Shown: positions 1-30,979 of the stretch, in pieces
Numbering within the stretch: position 1 is the first letter of the stretch
Layout of the letters: every line of letters starts with the position of its first letter
Virus record (IMG/VR): IMGVR_UViG_644736365_000004
DNA: 30,979 nucleotides
Origin: a virus
Taxonomy: Duplodnaviria; Heunggongvirae; Uroviricota; Caudoviricetes
Strand: one strand, 5' to 3'
Notes under the pieces: model-generated
Told to the model about the DNA's origin: nothing
Databases searched by the model: none
What the model saw: the letters and a program-made list of their open reading frames with translations, nothing else
Position numbers and translations under genes: made by a program

Positions 1-290
1 CTATTTATCGGAAGGTTTATCTTGCTGCGGTTTGTTGTTGACCATATCGCACAACATAGAGAGCAGCATTAACCGTACTTTAAAGGGAGAATGACTAAAC
101 ACGCGCATACACCTCTTGAACTCATTCATAAGACCTCCTGACTTGCTAATCCCGTCGATCCTTGAGGGATGATTGCATTACATACAGATATAGCACAGGC
201 TATATTATAAAGCATTAACTATCTACGAAAAACAGTAACTTACAGTGTTATCAATAAGTTACGTTAGTTAATATTCGTGAGTATTCGGCA

Positions 291-390
291 GTGTTTCTAA
301 GTTATCGCGACAATTTTGCGACATTTTAAGGGGTTAAGCGTACAGCTTCTTCAAGGTAGCTTGGGGCGAAATGCACCGCGCAATGCGGGG
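291..390 (-). pseudogene. integrase 3'-end remnant (partial duplicate of the int C-terminal region)
   Basis: 322-375 aligns with 1222-1276 (3' end of the intact int) with a few mismatches and one 1-nt indel; 291-301 matches 1202-1212. Minus-strand translation reads ...HFAPSYLEEAVRLTP* versus int ...HFAPSHLEDAVRLNPLKC... Similarity is lost right of ~390, so only about 20 C-terminal codons remain. Confidence 0.45.
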
Positions 391-467
391 GTAGCGGCTG
401 CAAGCCAGAAAGCGGCTGAAATTAAAATGGGTACGCTTACAGAGTGATTACCTTTTCAATTGTTATG

Positions 468-497
468 TTGAGTTAGCTGCTTGAAGTTATGTAGAAT
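468..497 (+). promoter_or_regulatory. candidate sigma70 promoter for the 580-1161 ORF
   Basis: TTGAGT (468-473), 18-nt spacer, TAGAAT (492-497), about 80 bp upstream of the ATG at 580. Hexamer match only. Confidence 0.2.
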
Positions 498-579
498 TTC
501 TATTCTAAGAACTAGAGTAGGGTGAACGACTGCTTTAGGAACACGGTGGGTAACCATTTCAACTTTTTGTGGACAAGTA

Positions 580-1161
580 ATGAATATACTTACTCAGTAT
601 GGGAAAGAAATATTTGCACTTTTTGTTCCTATTTTTACCTTATTTATCAATAAGATTTTTAAAAATGGAGCGAAAATTTGCTATGGAGAGCTTCACCAAT
701 ATAGCTATTTAATTAACGAGCCGTTACGTAATGCTGAAGGTGAAATTGTTAAGGCAAAACAGGTGGTGCATACAAAATCCTATGCCTTTAAAAACGAAGG
801 AAAAGAACCTGCTACTAATGTGGAGATAATTTTCAATTACCCACCTATGTACGTAAACATTTGGCCCTCAAGGCATTACACAATTAAGAGTGATGCCGAA
901 GAAAGGCAGGTTATGTTGTTTGATTATCTTGCACCACATGAATCTATACGATGTGAGGTTATGTCGATAAATACTGACTTACCCGCGTTGCTCACAGTGA
1001 GATGTAAAGAAGGAATTGCACGAAATATAACCTTGGTTCCTCAAAAACTTCACCATCCGGCCTTTATTCATTTTTGTCAACTATTGCTGTTTCTGGGGTC
1101 TGTAACTTTAATCTACATTGTTGTTGTTTTCCTCCAGTGGTTGTTGCTGAAAACAGGTTAG
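580..1161 (+). CDS. hypothetical membrane protein, cargo gene between int remnant and int
   Basis: 193-aa ORF in a visibly AT-rich segment, convergent with int. Hydrophobic N-terminal segment (FALFVPIFTLFINKIF) and C-terminal TM helix (FCQLLLFLGSVTLIYIVVVFLQWLLL) flank a ~140-aa soluble region. No recognisable family. Confidence 0.5.
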   Translation: MNILTQYGKEIFALFVPIFTLFINKIFKNGAKICYGELHQYSYLINEPLRNAEGEIVKAKQVVHTKSYAFKNEGKEPATNVEIIFNYPPMYVNIWPSRHYTIKSDAEERQVMLFDYLAPHESIRCEVMSINTDLPALLTVRCKEGIARNITLVPQKLHHPAFIHFCQLLLFLGSVTLIYIVVVFLQWLLLKTG

Positions 1162-1181
1162 AGACCTTTTATCCTTGTTGT

Positions 1182-2237
1182 TTATGTTTTGGTACTCGAC
1201 AGTATTTCTAAGCTGCTGCGGCATTTTAAGGGATTAAGCCGCACAGCGTCTTCAAGGTGGCTTGGGGCGAAATGCGCATACCGCATTGTCATAGTGATAT
1301 CGGCATGGCCGAGGATTTTTTGGAGAACCAGAATGTTGCCGCCGTTCATCATAAAGTGGCTGGCAAATGTATGGCGTAGTACGTGGGTAAGCTGACCTGC
1401 TGGTAGTTCAATGCCAGCACGTTCCAGAGCGGAACGGAAAGCGTTATAGCAGGGCTTTGGAAACAGAGCGCCTTTTGTTTCGGGTAGTTCAGCCAGCAGT
1501 TCATCATCTAACGGAATGGTACGGTTCCTTTTCCCTTTTGTTTTTATGAAGGTGACTTTTCCGCCAGCTATCTGGGAACTTTTGAGTGTTGCCGCTTCAT
1601 TCCATCTTGCGCCAGTCGCCAGACAGATTTTTACGACTAACTCTAAATAACTTACTTTACTGCGTTTGCATTCCAGCAAAAGCCGATCAATTTCCTCAGC
1701 AGTGAGAAATGCCATTTCAGTTTCATCTGTACGGTACTGTCTGACGTTCTCCAGTGGGTTAGGGGCTGACCACTCACCGATCCGTTTCAGTTCATTGAAC
1801 ATAGCCAGAAAATATGCGTGTTCAAGGTTCATTGTTTTAGGTGAAACCTTAGAAACACGGTTAGTACGGGCATAATGCCCTTCAAGCCTTTTTGCACGGT
1901 ATGCTGTAAACAGCTGGGCATTAAACTCAGTGGCCAGCGGAAAACCCATACACTCCGCCGCCCAGGTCATTGCGTCTTTACGCTTTTTACCATTGCGTAG
2001 GGCAACGCCGTGGCGCTCGTACCACATTGTAATCAGGTCGATTAATGTTCGTTTATCTTTCCCTTCACCTAACCACGGCGCACTATCTACCTTTTGAAGC
2101 GTGTGATTCTCAAATGCCAGGGCTTCTCCCTTAGTGGCAAATTTTTTACGTATACGCTTCCCGTTTTTACCATTGCTGCGGTTGACGGTGTAGAAGTCGG
2201 CGATCCATTCGCCAGTAGGAAGTTTACGAACACTCAT
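1182..2237 (-). CDS. int: tyrosine site-specific integrase (P2/186-type)
   Basis: 351-aa ORF. C-terminal catalytic signature ATGARWNE ... HVLRHTFASH ... MTMRYAHF (R, H-x-x-R, Y). Sits next to the repressor at the prophage edge. Confidence 0.9.
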   Translation of the reverse strand: MSVRKLPTGEWIADFYTVNRSNGKNGKRIRKKFATKGEALAFENHTLQKVDSAPWLGEGKDKRTLIDLITMWYERHGVALRNGKKRKDAMTWAAECMGFPLATEFNAQLFTAYRAKRLEGHYARTNRVSKVSPKTMNLEHAYFLAMFNELKRIGEWSAPNPLENVRQYRTDETEMAFLTAEEIDRLLLECKRSKVSYLELVVKICLATGARWNEAATLKSSQIAGGKVTFIKTKGKRNRTIPLDDELLAELPETKGALFPKPCYNAFRSALERAGIELPAGQLTHVLRHTFASHFMMNGGNILVLQKILGHADITMTMRYAHFAPSHLEDAVRLNPLKCRSSLEILSSTKT

Positions 2238-2238
2238 T

Positions 2239-2820
2239 TTATTTAATCGTCAGAACTACGCGGCCAATGATTTTTATGTCGTCGATGCCACAATCAAAAG
2301 CCATGCCCACGCCACTAACTCTTACTTTGCGTACTGGAATTCTTGTCAGTGTACGAATGCTAATTTTTCCTTCTACTTCAACCAGCCAATCGTCGTCATA
2401 AACTTCAGAGTAAGACTGGTCAACGATGTACTGTACAAGACCATCCAAAACGCATAACGGCTGTTGTGGTAGTGATTTACCTGGTAGGAAAGTGACTTTA
2501 TCAAGCATAAGAGTGCCTGAGTCGTAAAGCTGGCCATCAACGATCTTGCTGCGTGGAATTCTGAGAATGTCTAATTCTTCATCATTAAATTTTGGGCCGT
2601 GACCAGTAGCTAGCCATTCCAGGTTAGCGCCTGTTTCAGCAACACATTTAACGACGATATCAGCTGGGAAAACTCCACGTTTATAGCGTGATGATAGAGA
2701 ACTGGCAGCCATGTCCAGATGTTCTGCTAGCTGTAACTTCTGCGTAAATCCGTAAGCCTCGATCACCCGATCCAGAATCGGGGTGCTGTCAACGTTCAGG
2801 TCAATTTTGAATGTGCTCAT
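2239..2820 (-). CDS. CI-type prophage repressor (phage 186 cI-like by size and position)
   Basis: ORF immediately upstream of int on the same strand, divergent from the Apl/CII-like operon. ATG at 2818-2820 (MSTFKIDLN...) gives 193 aa; the track start at 2862 is GTG. Start choice is uncertain. Confidence 0.55.
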   Translation of the reverse strand: MSTFKIDLNVDSTPILDRVIEAYGFTQKLQLAEHLDMAASSLSSRYKRGVFPADIVVKCVAETGANLEWLATGHGPKFNDEELDILRIPRSKIVDGQLYDSGTLMLDKVTFLPGKSLPQQPLCVLDGLVQYIVDQSYSEVYDDDWLVEVEGKISIRTLTRIPVRKVRVSGVGMAFDCGIDDIKIIGRVVLTIK

Positions 2821-2834
2821 AACGAATCCATAAA

Positions 2835-2884
2835 TCTCGATTCGAGAAATTGTGATTGACACTTCTCGAAACGCGAATTAATCT
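2835..2884 (+). promoter_or_regulatory. lysis-lysogeny switch region: operator-like palindrome and rightward promoter
   Basis: Perfect 13-bp palindrome TCTCGATTCGAGA (2835-2847). TTGACA (2856-2861), 17-nt spacer, TAATCT (2879-2884). A TCTCGAA half-site repeats inside the spacer (2864-2870). Lies between the divergent repressor and Apl-like genes. Confidence 0.35.
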
Positions 2885-2955
2885 GGCTCCACATTTCGAA
2901 TGCAGCCTTATATAACCCTGTATTGCCGTACAGGTTAACTTGTGGAGTTTGCCTT

Positions 2956-3177
2956 ATGCGTCCAAACATTACAATCATCATCCCAGAACCATACCTGCCT
3001 CTAGACGAGTATTGCCGCCGTACTGGTACTAACAAAGAAACCGCTAGGAACCTGATCGAATACGGAAAATTACCTATCAAGCCGAAGGGTAAGCAAAAGA
3101 AAGGCCTGGTCGAAGTCAACATGGCCGCGCTTACCATTCAGGCGTTAAGCGAATGTGATATTTCGCTTAACGCGTAA
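2956..3177 (+). CDS. Apl/Cox-like small DNA-binding regulator or excisionase
   Basis: 73-aa ORF from the ATG at 2956, with GGAG 8 nt upstream. Divergent from the repressor, first gene of the rightward early operon. Basic patch GKLPIKPKGKQKKG is typical of Cox/Apl-type proteins. Confidence 0.5.
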   Translation: MRPNITIIIPEPYLPLDEYCRRTGTNKETARNLIEYGKLPIKPKGKQKKGLVEVNMAALTIQALSECDISLNA

Positions 3178-3207
3178 TCCATCCTACGGATTAGGGAGAG
3201 GCAAACA

Positions 3208-4331: not shown

Positions 4332-4732
4332 TGGCCATTATTTCCGTTGAAGGTAAATCGTTAGGGGCTGAATTGGCCGCGTGGGGAGTTCCTCACAATT
4401 ACGCTGTGGCTTTTGCTGAGAAAAGTACCAGTAAAAATGGCCGTATCGCTTTGCATCCTTTCTTCTTCAATGACACCGAACACATGACTAACCCGCGTCA
4501 TTGGCTGGCGATAAATGCCGCTTTCTGGTGCTGCGTGTACCGCGAGGCAGAGAGCAAAGAAGCGCAAATTGAAGCAATTGCCGGAATCCGCGCAATTTTC
4601 TATACGGCCGGGGCGTTGGGTGTTGGCGAGATTAAAGCACTGATCCAGGAGTGGTGGCGGACAACGTACGAGCTGCACCTTATTCCAGCACCGAATCATT
4701 CCGCAGTCACTGTACAACCCGCTTTTCACTAA
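4331..4732 (+). CDS. hypothetical early protein
   Basis: 133-aa ORF translationally coupled to the upstream ORF. No recognisable motif. Confidence 0.4.
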   Translation: MAIISVEGKSLGAELAAWGVPHNYAVAFAEKSTSKNGRIALHPFFFNDTEHMTNPRHWLAINAAFWCCVYREAESKEAQIEAIAGIRAIFYTAGALGVGEIKALIQEWWRTTYELHLIPAPNHSAVTVQPAFH

Positions 4733-4799: not shown

Positions 4800-5033
4800 A
4801 TGCACATGACACGTCAGGATTTACCCGCAACAAAATCAGGCACTGACCTGCTGGCTATGCTCACCAAAGCCACGCAGGAAGGTAAAGCAGCTGCTGCTGA
4901 TCTGTGTTCCACCCGCCTGGATAAGCTGGCCACCCATGCCGTCAATGAAGGTTTAAGCGCAACAGAAATCGTTGAGTTAATCCGCGAAGAAGCCGCAGCG
5001 ATTTGCAGTAAAGGCGGTGCAGCATGGCAGTAA
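4800..5033 (+). CDS. hypothetical small Ala-rich protein
   Basis: 77-aa ORF with RBS AAGGAAA. Its stop overlaps the dam start (ATGGCAGTAA). Confidence 0.35.
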   Translation: MHMTRQDLPATKSGTDLLAMLTKATQEGKAAAADLCSTRLDKLATHAVNEGLSATEIVELIREEAAAICSKGGAAWQ

Positions 5034-5893
5034 AAACTCCGCTTAAGTGGGTGGGCAGTAAAGCCCGCCTTATGCCGCAGTTGCTTCCCCATCTGCCGGA
5101 GGGCAAGCGCCTTATAGAACCTTTTGCTGGTTCCTGTGCAGTCATGATGAATACGGATTATGACGAGTACCTGATCGCTGATGTGAATCCTGATCTGGTT
5201 AATCTGTATAAGACTATGGCCTATCAGACTGATGCATTGCTCATTGAGCTGGAAGCTTTATTTTCTGCCGGTTCATTAGGCGATGAAGAAAGTCGCGCTG
5301 TTTTCTATTACGCGGTGCGTGATGCCTTCAACCAGTCCGGCAAATCCTTTGGTTCTGAATCTGTGGAAGCTGCTGCGCGTTTTCTTTATCTGAACCGTCA
5401 CTGCTTCAATGGCCTGTGCCGATACAATCGTCGTGGCCAGTTCAATGTTCCGTTTGGTAAGTACAAAAAAACCTACTTTCCTGCTGATGAAATCCGCGCT
5501 TTTGCAGAAAAAGCGAAACGTGCAACGTTCATTACTGCCCACTATTCAGAAACGCTTGATTTGGTAAGGGACGGGCATGACGTTGTTTATTGTGATCCGC
5601 CTTACCTGACTGATACCGACAATTTCACCGCGTACCATGAGCGCGGTTTTTCTCACATGGATCAGGGGCGGCTGGCGCGTAAGCTGCGCCGCCTGGCTGA
5701 GCGTGGGATTAAGGTTGTCGCGTCAAACAGCGATCTGGAAATGGTGCATTACCTGTATGCAGGATTTGACGCTGTGCGGGTAAATGCCCCACGCAGTGTG
5801 GGTGCAGCAGCTGCAAGCCAGAAAGTTGCCGCAGAGCTGATTCTTAAGTCACCTGCAAACCCCGCGATCGGCGTTAGGGCGGTGATGGCATGA
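5024..5893 (+). CDS. dam: DNA adenine (N6) methyltransferase, Dam family
   Basis: 289-aa ORF with AdoMet-binding motif EPFAGS near the N-terminus and catalytic DPPY (VYCDPPYL). N-terminus MAVKTPLKWVGSKARL is typical of Dam-type enzymes. Confidence 0.85.
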   Translation: MAVKTPLKWVGSKARLMPQLLPHLPEGKRLIEPFAGSCAVMMNTDYDEYLIADVNPDLVNLYKTMAYQTDALLIELEALFSAGSLGDEESRAVFYYAVRDAFNQSGKSFGSESVEAAARFLYLNRHCFNGLCRYNRRGQFNVPFGKYKKTYFPADEIRAFAEKAKRATFITAHYSETLDLVRDGHDVVYCDPPYLTDTDNFTAYHERGFSHMDQGRLARKLRRLAERGIKVVASNSDLEMVHYLYAGFDAVRVNAPRSVGAAAASQKVAAELILKSPANPAIGVRAVMA

Positions 5894-9800: not shown

Positions 9801-11572
9801 GCAGCCTCTTTCCTTACACCCCAGCGGGATTTCGGTTTGTTTTCGTAGTTGAGTGGTTCGTTATGCAGGGCGTGGGTAATTGCCCAGAACGCCTCCGCGT
9901 GGCCAGTGTCCTGGCTGCGGTCAGCGACAAATGTCATGGCGTTACCGCTTTGCGTGGTGGTGCGGCGTACAGCCATAAAGCTGGCCGGGATCTCTTTAAG
10001 GTTCTTGTCCCATTCAATACGCTGACTTTCCACCACGTCCGCCGCTTTCAGTACCAGCTGATTTTTTGTGTTCATGTCGTAACGAATGGCGACGGCCACG
10101 CGCATGGCAAAATGCTGGATGTTGTCAAAAACACCCTGGCCAATACCGGTAACGTCCACTCCCAGATAGGTGAAGTTGTATTTTTTAAACAGGAGTTCGA
10201 TCTGCCTGGCCTGATAGCGGAAGTTCATGCCCTTCCAGTTAATGACCTTCAGAACGCGGAATTTCTCTGCGGCATACATCGGCGGGGCAATAATCACAAA
10301 ACACGACAAATCGCCGCTGCGTGCCGGGTCAAAGCCTCCCCATACTGGCCTGTCACCAAATGGCCGCGCAGCGTCCGGGTTGTGATCCTGCCAGGTGTCC
10401 ACCTCCACACCGCAGGCTTCCAGATCTGAAAAGCTGAATACAGAATCCTTGCTGTCCACGAACACGCACATATAGAGCATGTTGAAGGTGGCAGTGTTGT
10501 AGCGGTTGCGCAGCTTCTCGATGTTGGCCAGGTTGAAGCCGCCCGCAATGGCATCCTCCATCGTGATGACATAGCGCCACTGACCGTCCGGGCAAAGCCG
10601 TCCGCCGTTGCGCATTTCATCAAAGGACGGGAACCGGGCGGCCGCGCGTTTTTTGCTGCCCTGTTTCCATTCCTCACCCGTCCAGAACGGGTAAGCCTGG
10701 TGTGTTTTGGCCGATGGTGTTGAAAAGTAGGTGGTGCGCCATTTGTCATGGGTGGCCATTGCGCTGGCCACTTCGTTAAGCCTGGCGAAGTTAGGCACCC
10801 AGAAATATTCGTCACAGTACAGGTGGCCACTGTAGGACTGTGCCGTGTTTTTGTTGGTTGAGAGAAAACGCAGTTCAGCGCCATTGCTGAGGCGGATCGG
10901 GTTGCCGGTCAGCGTGATGCCAAAATACTGCTCTGCAATGTTGACGATGTAAGACCGGAAGTATTCCGCCTGGACTTTGGAGGCTGACAGGAAGATTTGC
11001 GGATCGCCTGTCATGACCGCGTTTTCAAAGGCTTCAAATGCAAAGTACCAGGTGGCACCGATCTGGCGGCTTTTAAGGATGTTCCTGACCTGCTGGCCAA
11101 TATTCCTGCGCAGGTGTTTCTGGTATTCAAAAAGATGTTCATCCGCCCAGGTGTCAAAATCCGCCTGAGTCAGAGAAGAAATATCGTTTTTCCTGTTTTT
11201 GCGTTTGGGGCGCGGTTCATCGCTGTTACTGTCCCGCTCAGCTGCCTGACCGTTACTCTGGCCGCTGGCCATCTTTTCTTTATGCTTATTGCTTTGAGCA
11301 CGCAGCTTTGTGGCGTGGGCAATCAGCATGTCCATTTCTTTCAGGTCGAGATCGGTTTTATTATCGCGGCTGGCCAGCAGCTGGTAGCGGCGTTCGATTG
11401 CCTCCTCTGTACTTTCAAAACTGAGTAAATCAGCCCAGCTGTATTTCTCAGCCCAGTAGTAAACGATCCGCGCATTCGGCAGATTTAATTCTGATGCAAT
11501 TTCTTTTGGCGTATAGCGGCGCAAATAAAGTGCGCGGACAACGCCTTTTAGTTCTTCTGAGTATTTAGCCAT
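9797..11572 (-). CDS. terminase large (ATPase) subunit (P2 gpP-like)
   Basis: 591-aa ORF divergent from the scaffold gene. Contains LKSRQIGATWYFA, a motif I recall from P2-type terminases. Length matches gpP. Confidence 0.85.
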   Translation of the reverse strand: MAKYSEELKGVVRALYLRRYTPKEIASELNLPNARIVYYWAEKYSWADLLSFESTEEAIERRYQLLASRDNKTDLDLKEMDMLIAHATKLRAQSNKHKEKMASGQSNGQAAERDSNSDEPRPKRKNRKNDISSLTQADFDTWADEHLFEYQKHLRRNIGQQVRNILKSRQIGATWYFAFEAFENAVMTGDPQIFLSASKVQAEYFRSYIVNIAEQYFGITLTGNPIRLSNGAELRFLSTNKNTAQSYSGHLYCDEYFWVPNFARLNEVASAMATHDKWRTTYFSTPSAKTHQAYPFWTGEEWKQGSKKRAAARFPSFDEMRNGGRLCPDGQWRYVITMEDAIAGGFNLANIEKLRNRYNTATFNMLYMCVFVDSKDSVFSFSDLEACGVEVDTWQDHNPDAARPFGDRPVWGGFDPARSGDLSCFVIIAPPMYAAEKFRVLKVINWKGMNFRYQARQIELLFKKYNFTYLGVDVTGIGQGVFDNIQHFAMRVAVAIRYDMNTKNQLVLKAADVVESQRIEWDKNLKEIPASFMAVRRTTTQSGNAMTFVADRSQDTGHAEAFWAITHALHNEPLNYENKPKSRWGVRKEAA

Positions 11573-28789: not shown

Positions 28790-28800
28790 TCATCCCATTA

Positions 28801-28825
28801 GCCCGCGCGTAATGCGGGTTTTTTT
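28801..28825 (+). terminator. Rho-independent terminator ending the late operon
   Basis: Stem CCCGC (28802-28806) / GCGGG (28814-28818) with a 7-nt loop, followed by a run of 7 T (28819-28825), 12 nt after the hub-spike stop. Confidence 0.6.
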
Positions 28826-29333
28826 GTACCCATTCCCAGACCTCACCAGACGCATTCTAAGCGCTTCTTTTATCTGACCACTACCGCGCAACACCACAAA
28901 AGGATCTGTGCTGTCACGTTACGCTGACGGCGTTACACGCTGACGAAATAAATCTTTCGCAGACAAAAACGGCACTACACCGCACCCGCCTGCGGTTTCT
29001 GGATCGATAAAATTTTTCATTTTTCTTTTTCTTCAAACAACCAACCCAGACAGCGCCATTACTGGGGGATTAGCGGCTAACGTGAACTGAAAAGATTGAA
29101 AAGAATTTCAGTATTTTTCAGTGGAAAGGATCGATGGCGGGAATGATGAAATTACTAACATGTTGATATTTAATTAGTAATTTAGTTTTATGCGGGAGGG
29201 GGAGGATCCTTTCGTGCTGAATGGTTCTGAGAACATAAAGCCCGTGAAGATAGGAACTACGCGGGCTGTACATACTTTGTGTGTGATTTCAAAACTGAAA
29301 TTTATCAGCTGTGGCATCAGCAACTAGTTTTAA

Positions 29334-29504
29334 CTAACGTTTTTTAGGTGGTGGAGCAATATGTTGGGTTTGTTGGGTCTGGCGTGGTGGTTGGTAGCCA
29401 TTGTTTTGTTGGTCTGGCCTGCTTGTAGGCTGGTAACCTTTTTCTACAGGTTGCCAACCATCGTGGATAGTTCTTGGATTGTTAGCCGGTTTATCTTCAA
29501 CCAT
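29334..29504 (-). CDS. hypothetical small Pro/Gln-rich protein
   Basis: 56 aa from the ATG at 29502-29504, which overlaps the stop of the upstream membrane-protein ORF (AATGGTTGA). Contains repeated G[WY]QP motifs. Low complexity, so coding status is uncertain. Confidence 0.3.
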   Translation of the reverse strand: MVEDKPANNPRTIHDGWQPVEKGYQPTSRPDQQNNGYQPPRQTQQTQHIAPPPKKR

Positions 29505-30135
29505 TTTCTGCCTCACCTTTGTTAGGATTACTATTATGTACTTTAATAAATTCAACACTTTCTATTTCATTAGTCAATATAATTATCCCTAATGTATCGG
29601 TTAGTTCGTGATCGAAATCACTATTGTCATCTAGTGCCCAATGTTTTTCTAGATATATTTGCTCCGGTTCGGGACTACTTGACGCAAATGAAGCACTACC
29701 ATAATAGCCACCATATTTTTTACCATTCTTAAGTGTGACCAGCACCCAGCAGCATTGTCTGGTTGAAAAGAAGTAGTCCCATGAACGCCCAATAGGGTGA
29801 GGTAGGAAACGTTTGACCATTTCACAGTTTCGAATGAATATTAAAAATATAGGTAGTAGTACAGGGATAACTATTAATACACAGAAATAAAATAAATAAT
29901 AAAGGATTGGGTTAGTAAGGAATATATCATTATCTTCAATTAGATATATTGGTATTAATAGAAAAGAATAATTTATACAGCTATAAGAAACTACATCTAT
30001 CAGAATTTTTGAAGTGTCAGAATCCGCAGATGGGTGAAAGAGCCTGTAAACTCTCATGCTAATAAAGCCGGGCATGATGAAAAGCACAAATAACAGTAGT
30101 TTACCCTTTTCTAGTATGTCCATTTTTATATCCAT
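29497..30135 (-). CDS. hypothetical polytopic membrane protein
   Basis: 212-aa ORF in very AT-rich sequence. About three N-terminal TM helices (LLLFVLFIMPGFI, SFLLIPIYLI, LFYFCVLIVIPVLLPIFLIFI) and a ~110-aa soluble C-terminal domain. Confidence 0.5.
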   Translation of the reverse strand: MDIKMDILEKGKLLLFVLFIMPGFISMRVYRLFHPSADSDTSKILIDVVSYSCINYSFLLIPIYLIEDNDIFLTNPILYYLFYFCVLIVIPVLLPIFLIFIRNCEMVKRFLPHPIGRSWDYFFSTRQCCWVLVTLKNGKKYGGYYGSASFASSSPEPEQIYLEKHWALDDNSDFDHELTDTLGIIILTNEIESVEFIKVHNSNPNKGEAENG

Positions 30136-30180
30136 GAAATAAATATTTAAGCCGAATTAATTATAATTCGGCAATTAAAA

Positions 30181-30438
30181 TTAGAAATCTTCAATATCGA
30201 ATGAGTTAATGTCAGCAGGTTTAGCCTGGGGACGTTTACCCACGAGATTTTCTGTTTCTCTGAAAAGGACATCTTCTGCCCCACCTCTTTCGCGGTGAGA
30301 ATCCTCTTTGATGTAAAGACGTTCTTGCTGCATACGAAGAATCGTTCTTTCAATTAGCTCATACAAATCGCATCCTGAGTGATTTAACTCTGTTAATAAT
30401 GCCTTGAGGGCAAGCTCAGTTTGGTATCTGGTAGCCAT
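30181..30438 (-). CDS. hypothetical small soluble protein with acidic C-terminal tail
   Basis: 85 aa from the ATG at 30436-30438 (track start is TTG two codons upstream), with AAGGA upstream. Predicted helical N-terminus; ends ...ADINSFDIEDF. Confidence 0.45.
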   Translation of the reverse strand: MATRYQTELALKALLTELNHSGCDLYELIERTILRMQQERLYIKEDSHRERGGAEDVLFRETENLVGKRPQAKPADINSFDIEDF

Positions 30439-30481
30439 TTGCAAATATCCTTAAGTGAAGGTTAATCTGGCTGCGAAATTG

Positions 30482-30979
30482 CTACAGCTTTCCTTCCGAA
30501 ATCTTGAAGTCCACAACTTCTTTAGTTTTCAGATCAAGCGTGCAAGCATAAGTCATGGTCATTTTGGCATTGAAGCCATTGGTGAATTTGACCTTATCAC
30601 CGATGAAAGTTAACTGGTTCTTTTTGCTATCAATTCGGCCATGTGAAAACATAGGGTCTAACATCCCATCAGTCCATTCAAATTCATATTTTGCCGAACG
30701 CTCAACCAATGGTTTGCATTTGGTCACCGCATCGATCAGGTTCTTATCAAAGTTGCACTGAGTGTCTGTGTTAGAGCATACCTTCGTGGCCTCAGCTGCT
30801 TTATCGTCGTCGCTATTGCCAACGAAGTACATGACTATCCCGACAATAATAATCAGTATCAGACAGCCGCTAAGTTTCTGTTTAGCACCAAAGCCCGGAT
30901 CTTTAACGCCGCAGTGAGGGCAGGTCTTTGCAGAGGTTGATACTTCTTTTTTGCATTCTTTGCATTTAGTGAGTGCCAT
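30482..30979 (-). CDS. hypothetical zinc-ribbon membrane protein
   Basis: 165-aa ORF. N-terminal zinc ribbon C-x2-C-x10-C-x2-C (CKECKKEVSTSAKTCPHCG), one TM helix (LILIIIVGIVMYFVG), and a Cys-containing ~115-aa C-terminal domain. Its ATG is the last 3 nt of the window, so the N-terminus and promoter may be cut off. Confidence 0.5.
   Translation of the reverse strand: MALTKCKECKKEVSTSAKTCPHCGVKDPGFGAKQKLSGCLILIIIVGIVMYFVGNSDDDKAAEATKVCSNTDTQCNFDKNLIDAVTKCKPLVERSAKYEFEWTDGMLDPMFSHGRIDSKKNQLTFIGDKVKFTNGFNAKMTMTYACTLDLKTKEVVDFKISEGKL

Follow-up and report, generated by a model that had tools for sequence, protein, structure and literature searches.

T4 Imm, HK97 gp15 and P22 SieA are membrane superinfection-exclusion proteins that block the entry of phage genomes. 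Among the transmembrane effectors of abortive infection, CBASS Cap15 carries both of its transmembrane helices ahead of a beta-barrel and depends on a cyclase encoded beside it. P2-like phages are in turn known for cargo carried in hotspots (2022, PMC9122126; PMC13586616). A 2026 survey of these phages lists the interval between att and int as a minor defence hotspot that holds 3% of systems (PMC13586616). HK97 gp15 is cited in PMC13190303.

The gene described here lies at positions 580-1161 of a stretch of DNA of 30,979 nucleotides, hereafter the window. It represents an unrecognised family within a known kind, the membrane cargo of prophage hotspots. It resembles HK97 gp15, T4 Imm and P22 SieA in that its product is small, predicted to reside in the inner membrane and devoid of an enzymatic domain, and in being an extra gene of atypical composition that related phages lack. 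It differs from them in showing no sequence similarity (PHROGs were negative for 66 family members), in having a helix-sandwich-helix architecture with the soluble domain predicted to be cytoplasmic, and in its carriers, which span myo-type phages, filamentous phages and satellite-like elements. Like Cap15, the protein combines two transmembrane helices with a compact beta domain and could couple binding to membrane damage; unlike Cap15, its helices flank the domain, no conserved partner gene accompanies it and no homology was detected. It shares with the cargo of P2-like hotspots a location in the variable att-flanking region of Peduoviridae, where genes are swapped between phages, and neighbours that include PIN, KAP NTPase and DUF6338 genes. 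In contrast to that cargo, it matches 0 of 5027 PADLOC models.

Positions 1-213 of the window are E. coli chromosome with 99.5% identity to K-12, and homology to K-12 stops at 213. Beyond this flank lies a prophage of approximately 31 kb that belongs to the ESSI-2-like Peduoviridae. Its structural genes are 86% identical to those of Escherichia phage ESSI2_ev129, and its early region is phage 186-like, with int, cI, apl-like, cII and fil genes. The att core was derived by comparing the window with K-12 and with the two ends of the near-identical prophage in strain MFDS1016424. Since this core lies at 197-209 and K-12 homology ends at 213, the gene falls between attL and int and belongs to the excisable element. 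The initial annotation had placed it at the integrase-proximal edge of a prophage and in the opposite orientation to int. Both statements hold: the gene converges on int, with the two stop codons 20 nt apart. The features of this end of the prophage are as follows.

Positions 1-129, minus strand: mntS, a host gene in the chromosomal flank, bearing this annotation in every matching E. coli genome
Positions about 197-209: att core (attL), GGCTATATTATA, in the mntS/mntR intergenic region, common to attB of K-12, attL of the window and attR of MFDS1016424
Positions 214-373: phage arm plus int remnant, common to prophages without the ORF; 91% identical to prophage L002 over 214-373 alone and 96% over 1-373
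Positions 297-373: remnant of an int 3' end, 77 nt; the int stop of L002 falls at the window equivalent of 297
Positions 362-447, plus strand: C-terminal remnant of a Dam-type methylase, ending in NAPRNAGVAAASQKAAEIKMGTLTE and a stop codon; the translation matches the Dam C-terminus
Positions 374-1188, plus strand: insert of 815 nt without counterpart in sister prophages at the mntS site; L002 matches only 1-373 and 1189-2400
Positions 468-497, plus strand: candidate sigma-70-like promoter, TTGAGT-18-TAGAAT, matching 9 of 12 consensus positions
Positions 580-1161, plus strand: gene for a protein of 193 residues (transmembrane helix, beta-sandwich, transmembrane helix), with its ATG at 580
Positions 1182-2237, minus strand: tyrosine integrase gene int (Pfam Int_N and Phage_integrase), convergent with the 580-1161 gene
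Positions 2239-2862, minus strand: CI-type repressor gene (Pfam Phage_CI_repr and Phage_CI_C), directly upstream of int on the same strand

The gene is real, intact and under purifying selection. Its ATG follows a weak Shine-Dalgarno-like GGA at 571-573, 6 nt upstream, and complete E. coli genomes carry it as the hypothetical protein WP_071290238.1. DNA of 36% GC contains approximately 0.069 stop codons per codon, which by arithmetic estimate gives a chance of about 1e-6 for 193 open codons. Against ten homologs, the non-synonymous difference is approximately 0.2 and the synonymous difference, which is saturated, approximately 0.8; dN/dS is 0.13-0.14 in the two measurable pairs. The AT-richness seen earlier is confirmed, with a GC content of 36.3% (33.7% at third codon positions) against 52.4% for positions 1189-28789 of the window, and the homologs all fall between 31 and 41%. 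A search of positions 1-3200 against Rfam returned no match, so the region is not explained by an RNA element.

The variable region flanking attP carries the gene as solitary accessory ('moron') cargo. Close relatives, the sister prophages at the mntS site, lack it at the corresponding position, and its composition sets it apart from the surrounding phage genes. Approximately 20 other E. coli prophages at this site match the window over 1-373 and from 1189 onward, without 374-1188. One of these prophages is L002, whose int shares 98% protein identity with that of the window over residues 1-340. The insert occurs in 7 of 5426 complete E. coli genomes and the gene in 9, the additional two having a homolog of 70% identity at the opposite prophage end.

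Comparison of its parts indicates that the insert is a patchwork of recombination scars around an intact gene. Positions 324-374 repeat 1225-1275, part of the real int 3' end (1189-1275), in direct orientation and at 80% identity. Positions 362-412 match 5775-5825, a segment of the dam gene that the window itself carries (5024-5893), likewise at 80%. The Dam remnant reads NAPRNAGVAAASQKAAEI where the window's own dam reads NAPRSVGAAAASQKVAAELI. These back-to-back int and dam fragments at 297-447 show that related phages were joined non-homologously to build up the att-proximal region. Non-homologous patchwork recombination of this kind set the gene on the int side of attP. Deletion within a tandem prophage was considered as another source of the int-side position and is unlikely, as no second att core is present between the ORF and int.

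Standard libraries do not recognise the protein. Neither the window protein nor 66 diverse relatives gave a significant match in Pfam-A, NCBIfam, PHROGs or PADLOC (5027 models), and the relatives returned only scattered single matches at E>=0.005. The best hit of a sequence profile search of the PDB was to an unrelated ribosomal protein (E 0.025). No paper found in the literature names the protein accessions, and none names the Yersinia phage discussed below or DUF6338 in this context. A word-indexed search nevertheless retrieved 40 close clusters, all of approximately 193 residues and all from Enterobacterales. An exhaustive profile search extended these to 658 clusters at E<=1e-3 and 369 at E<=1e-10, with clusters defined at 50% identity. 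Nearly all of the 658 are 180-205 residues long, match over their full length and have the same architecture, and their taxonomic reach extends as far as Pseudomonas and Alphaproteobacteria. The window protein itself matches the profile over its full length and has the transmembrane helix/beta-sandwich/transmembrane helix architecture, the sequence motifs, G173 and Y179. The profile evidence thereby places it in a large, uncurated and unstudied family. The statement in the initial annotation that no family was recognised is correct for curated libraries, but a large uncurated family of approximately 190-residue proteins does exist.

Within the circular phage genome, the gene usually sits between the last tail gene (551-568 aa) and attP. 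This tail-side position is found in Yersinia phage vB_YenM_324 (gp38), in Pantoea pESL4.2, a 'plasmid' that is a circular P2-like genome, and in many prophages and viral contigs. At the mntS/mntR site of strain mip270_05, a tail gene is followed in turn by the homolog, a PIN-domain gene, attR and mntR. The spacer between the tail gene and the homolog is unconserved and ranges from approximately 100 to 1150 nt, being about 600 nt in loci L019 and L021 and about 100 nt in L015 and L017. In the window, the gene is on the opposite side of attP, and the tail-side slot is filled by different AT-rich cargo that includes a DUF6338 protein:

Positions 28790-30979, minus strand: second AT-rich cargo block (GC 33-40%) on the tail-gene side, the far side of attP; includes small ORFs
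Positions 29497-30135, minus strand: DUF6338 membrane protein with multiple transmembrane segments (Pfam DUF6338, E 4e-37)
Positions 30482-30979, minus strand: Zn-ribbon plus transmembrane protein within the second AT-rich block

There were no PADLOC matches in this block, and in the prophage of MFDS1016424 other genes replace it. Homologs of the DUF6338 gene adjoin homologs of the ORF in L005, L033 and L034. Given that the gene and the DUF6338 cargo occur on either side of attP, the whole interval from the tail gene to int behaves as one hotspot with attP inside it. The order att core (197-209), gene (580-1161), int (1182-2237), with the same core at attR of MFDS1016424, corresponds to the att-int interval of the 2026 survey.

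The family extends well beyond P2-like phages. In metagenomic contigs L023-L025, a filamentous (Zot / REP_ORF2-G2P) inovirus prophage carries a 36%-identical homolog (8001-8573 in L023). Its accessory module runs in the order of an HTH protein, the homolog, an SNase-domain protein 47 nt downstream and a Gp49/HTH (HigBA-like) toxin-antitoxin-like pair; the homolog and the SNase-domain protein could form a two-gene membrane-anchored nuclease unit. In IMG/VR contigs L036-L044, a 44%-identical homolog ends a row of D5_N/Pox_D5 primase-helicase, ProQ/FinO and HTH_17 genes, an element that looks like a satellite-like integrative element and not a complete phage. A Pseudomonas prophage carries a homolog near integrases. 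Defence-like neighbours of homologs include a PIN_8 protein, a KAP NTPase and an OLD-family ATPase with a UvrD helicase (Gabija-like). In Pectobacterium, the homolog is near Hcp and large unknown genes, and some distant members are found in ordinary chromosomal settings where a mobile element is not recognisable. The loci of the family share no conserved partner gene. These contexts show that the gene is solitary cargo moving between hotspots of unrelated temperate elements.

Intact homologs also persist in decayed prophage remnants (L010, L011, L013). They accompany a split int, cI, apl and a truncated cII in Lelliottia, tail-gene fragments in Citrobacter and an int fragment in Y. massiliensis. 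In Edwardsiella, the homolog stands alone between host genes, at the same chromosomal site as L013. The Lelliottia remnant L011, of 6.4 kb and located beside mug, seems to be bounded by a 56-nt direct repeat (4386-4441 and 10851-10906), as read from a single BLAST match of L012 versus L011. The related strain RIT714 (L012) has a different island with a homolog at the same site.

A short conserved ORF of 61-64 residues containing VKEIEVISSLWAEKAGEKKVNKLLASGEW converges on the homolog in closely related Yersinia-type loci only and is absent from the window. Its positions are:

L004: 28871-29065
L013: 10644-10838
L018: 8644-8838
L028: 6866-7051
L029: 6643-6828

An AlphaFold2 model of the protein, built with an alignment of 31 sequences, is confident, with a pLDDT of 83.8. 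In it, a beta-sandwich of nine strands (residues 33-142) is flanked by helices at 3-27 and 160-192, and pLDDT block means are approximately 87-93 over most of the sandwich. The maximum of a 19-residue Kyte-Doolittle profile is 1.5 at residues 9-29 and 2.5 at 165-186. Hydropathy and model thereby bear out the earlier description of hydrophobic ends around a soluble core, with terminal helices flanking the sandwich, and the two terminal hydrophobic helices predict an inner-membrane protein. The parts of the protein correspond to the following positions.

Residues 3-27, positions 586-660, plus strand: moderately hydrophobic N-terminal helix with the motif YGKEI at its start (AlphaFold2)
Residues 33-150, positions 676-1029, plus strand: beta-sandwich domain of approximately 120 residues, predicted cytoplasmic (AlphaFold2, charge bias)
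Residues 160-192, positions 1057-1155, plus strand: strongly hydrophobic C-terminal transmembrane helix (AlphaFold2)

Conserved residues are found in the helices as well as in the sandwich. Y7, G8, K9, E10 and I11 are invariant in the Enterobacterales clade, as are Q186 and W187. In the broad family, conservation reaches 75% for E10 and 89% for Y179, and G173 does not vary. The sandwich has the conserved motifs NxG..A..VE..FN, WP and LAPxE. The presence of conserved polar or small residues within the helices suggests that these do more than anchor the protein. An N-terminus of the type IV pilin or pseudopilin kind was ruled out: K-E follows G8, which is not the +5 Glu pattern, and a C-terminal transmembrane helix is present.

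Topology was predicted from charge. Counts were taken over the 66 diverse relatives, and the close clade gives the same picture:

15 residues after helix 1: mean K+R 3.2, mean D+E 0.2
15 residues before helix 2: mean K+R 2.2, mean D+E 0.7
N-terminal tail: mean K+R 0.8, mean D+E 2.0
C-terminal tail: mean K+R 0.4, mean D+E 0.1

The flanks adjoining the sandwich average 5.5 K+R against 1.2 at the termini, a pattern present in 65 of the 66 members. The positive-inside rule, the single basis for this assignment, predicts a cytoplasmic sandwich and two short periplasmic termini. The tail after the C-terminal helix is G193 alone if the AlphaFold2 end is used, or the three residues KTG if the segment ends at L190. 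At most about 15 residues, comprising the short acidic N-terminal tail and a few C-terminal residues, are therefore predicted to be exposed to the periplasm. The nearest fold matches are only generic Ig/CBM-like. CBM2, pilin and integrin domains are extracytoplasmic, which counts against a cytoplasmic sandwich. Identity to these CBM2/chitin-binding, pilin, integrin and TRAP-beta sandwiches is 4-17%, and folds of this kind are too widespread to be informative about function. A conserved disulfide was ruled out as a sign of periplasmic location: C125 occurs in 8 and C142 in 21 of the 66 members, and no conserved cysteine pair was found among them.

The initial annotation had suggested a lysogenic-conversion, superinfection-exclusion or abortive-infection factor. 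The moron character and variable cargo positions of the gene fit this suggestion, but no homology points to a specific function and the promoter is at chance level. An anti-phage role, inferred without homology to a characterised protein, is our preferred reading and falls a little short of an even chance. It is supported by purifying selection and by the constancy of length and architecture across 658 clusters. The status of the gene as cargo that is absent from sister prophages, rare, AT-rich and bordered by scars argues in the same direction, as do its repeated capture by unrelated mobile elements and the defence-like neighbours in its hotspots. Further support comes from its intact retention in decayed remnants and from the description of the att-int interval as a defence hotspot (PMC13586616). 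The reading is weakened by the negative results with curated libraries, the generic fold, the chance-level promoter, the convergence on cI-int and the plain chromosomal contexts of some distant members.

If the gene is anti-phage, its product would be made in the lysogen and would act at the inner membrane to guard the cell against other phages. A component of the phage or of the host might be bound or sensed by the cytoplasmic sandwich, and the output might come from the conserved pair of helices (E10, G173, Y179, Q186), either as a disturbance of the membrane (abortive infection) or as an obstruction of the route of genome entry. The simplest model would have a periplasmic domain that stops the tail of an incoming phage, and the predicted cytoplasmic location of the soluble domain speaks against it; together with the conserved helix residues, this location favours a binding sandwich with helix output over periplasmic tail-blocking. 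A bolder form of this proposal is speculative and in our judgement rather doubtful. It holds that the gene is the first member to be noticed of a widespread single-gene anti-phage system, an inner-membrane protein in which the cytoplasmic sandwich senses a phage component and the flanking helices oligomerise to stop infection. P2-like phages, filamentous phages and satellites would pass this system among themselves, and hosts would keep it after prophage decay.

Should the gene prove protective, it would add to the anti-phage repertoire a compact single-gene membrane system that current defence-finding databases miss. Its spread over at least three unrelated kinds of temperate element would then show how cargo moves between hotspots, and its survival in prophage remnants would show how such cargo becomes domesticated by hosts. 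Without a protective role, it is simply another hypothetical membrane moron.

Classical superinfection exclusion, in which an inner-membrane protein blocks entry of the incoming genome without killing the cell, overlaps the preferred reading and differs from it in output only. In its favour, the prophage-encoded protein is small, is predicted to lie in the inner membrane and lacks both an enzymatic domain and a partner gene, and the gene has the position and composition of a moron. We nonetheless consider it unlikely: at most about 15 residues are predicted to be periplasmic, and no PHROG family was matched, those of known Sie proteins included. In addition, its inovirus and satellite-like carriers have differing entry routes, which general defence fits better than exclusion of the phage's own type.

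The persistence of the intact gene in decayed prophages, and its solitary place between host genes in Edwardsiella, could equally reflect lysogenic conversion apart from phage defence, either as toxin or bacteriocin immunity or as an envelope or fitness factor. The Pectobacterium locus near Hcp and the plain chromosomal settings of some distant members are in line with this. The absence of a conserved adjoining toxin partner, and the prevalence of phage and satellite cargo hotspots with defence-like neighbours among the contexts, make it improbable.

A late phage-serving function, such as lysis timing or membrane modulation through read-through from the tail operon, would account for the commonest arrangement, in which the gene directly follows the last tail gene and shares its direction. 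We regard it as quite improbable, given that the spacer of approximately 100-1150 nt after the tail gene is unconserved, that the gene is absent from most related phages and has moved away from the late operon in the window, and that it survives in remnants without lytic genes. A functionless passenger or chance ORF left by recombination might be suspected from the surrounding scars and the non-significant promoter, but is effectively refuted by conservation (dN/dS approximately 0.13, 658 clusters of the same length, a chance of about 1e-6) and retains almost no probability.

Returning to the preferred anti-phage reading, the question of expression bears on it directly. The initial annotation had assigned the gene a candidate promoter of its own at 468-497. 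The sequence exists, but it does not rise above chance: two such sigma-70-like sites are found in the region against 3.4 expected in shuffles. Nor is it conserved in homolog loci, which share no promoter or cassette border and have in common only the coding sequence and the weak GGA. No terminator was predicted on either strand between the gene and int, and lysogenic transcription of cI-int may, we infer, run antisense through the gene.

Two further aspects of the locus concern genes on either side. The att core GGCTATATTATA sits within the divergent mntS/mntR promoter region. The 5' end of the K-12 rybA/mntS transcript corresponds to approximately position 196 of the window, so the prophage replaces all sequence upstream of the mntS start. 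Integration of the prophage may change the regulation of manganese homeostasis genes. A sigma-70-like site, ATTACA-18-TATATT (177-206, plus strand), spans the att core and is directed into the prophage, towards the 580-1161 gene.

On the other side, the interval from int to cI holds an additional gene in related phages, at 1190-1888 in L004, 9436-10311 in L005 and 6885-7775 in L011. It encodes approximately 230 residues in L004 and 291-296 residues in L005 and L011, and the genes of the latter two are homologous. This slot is empty in the window, where int abuts cI.
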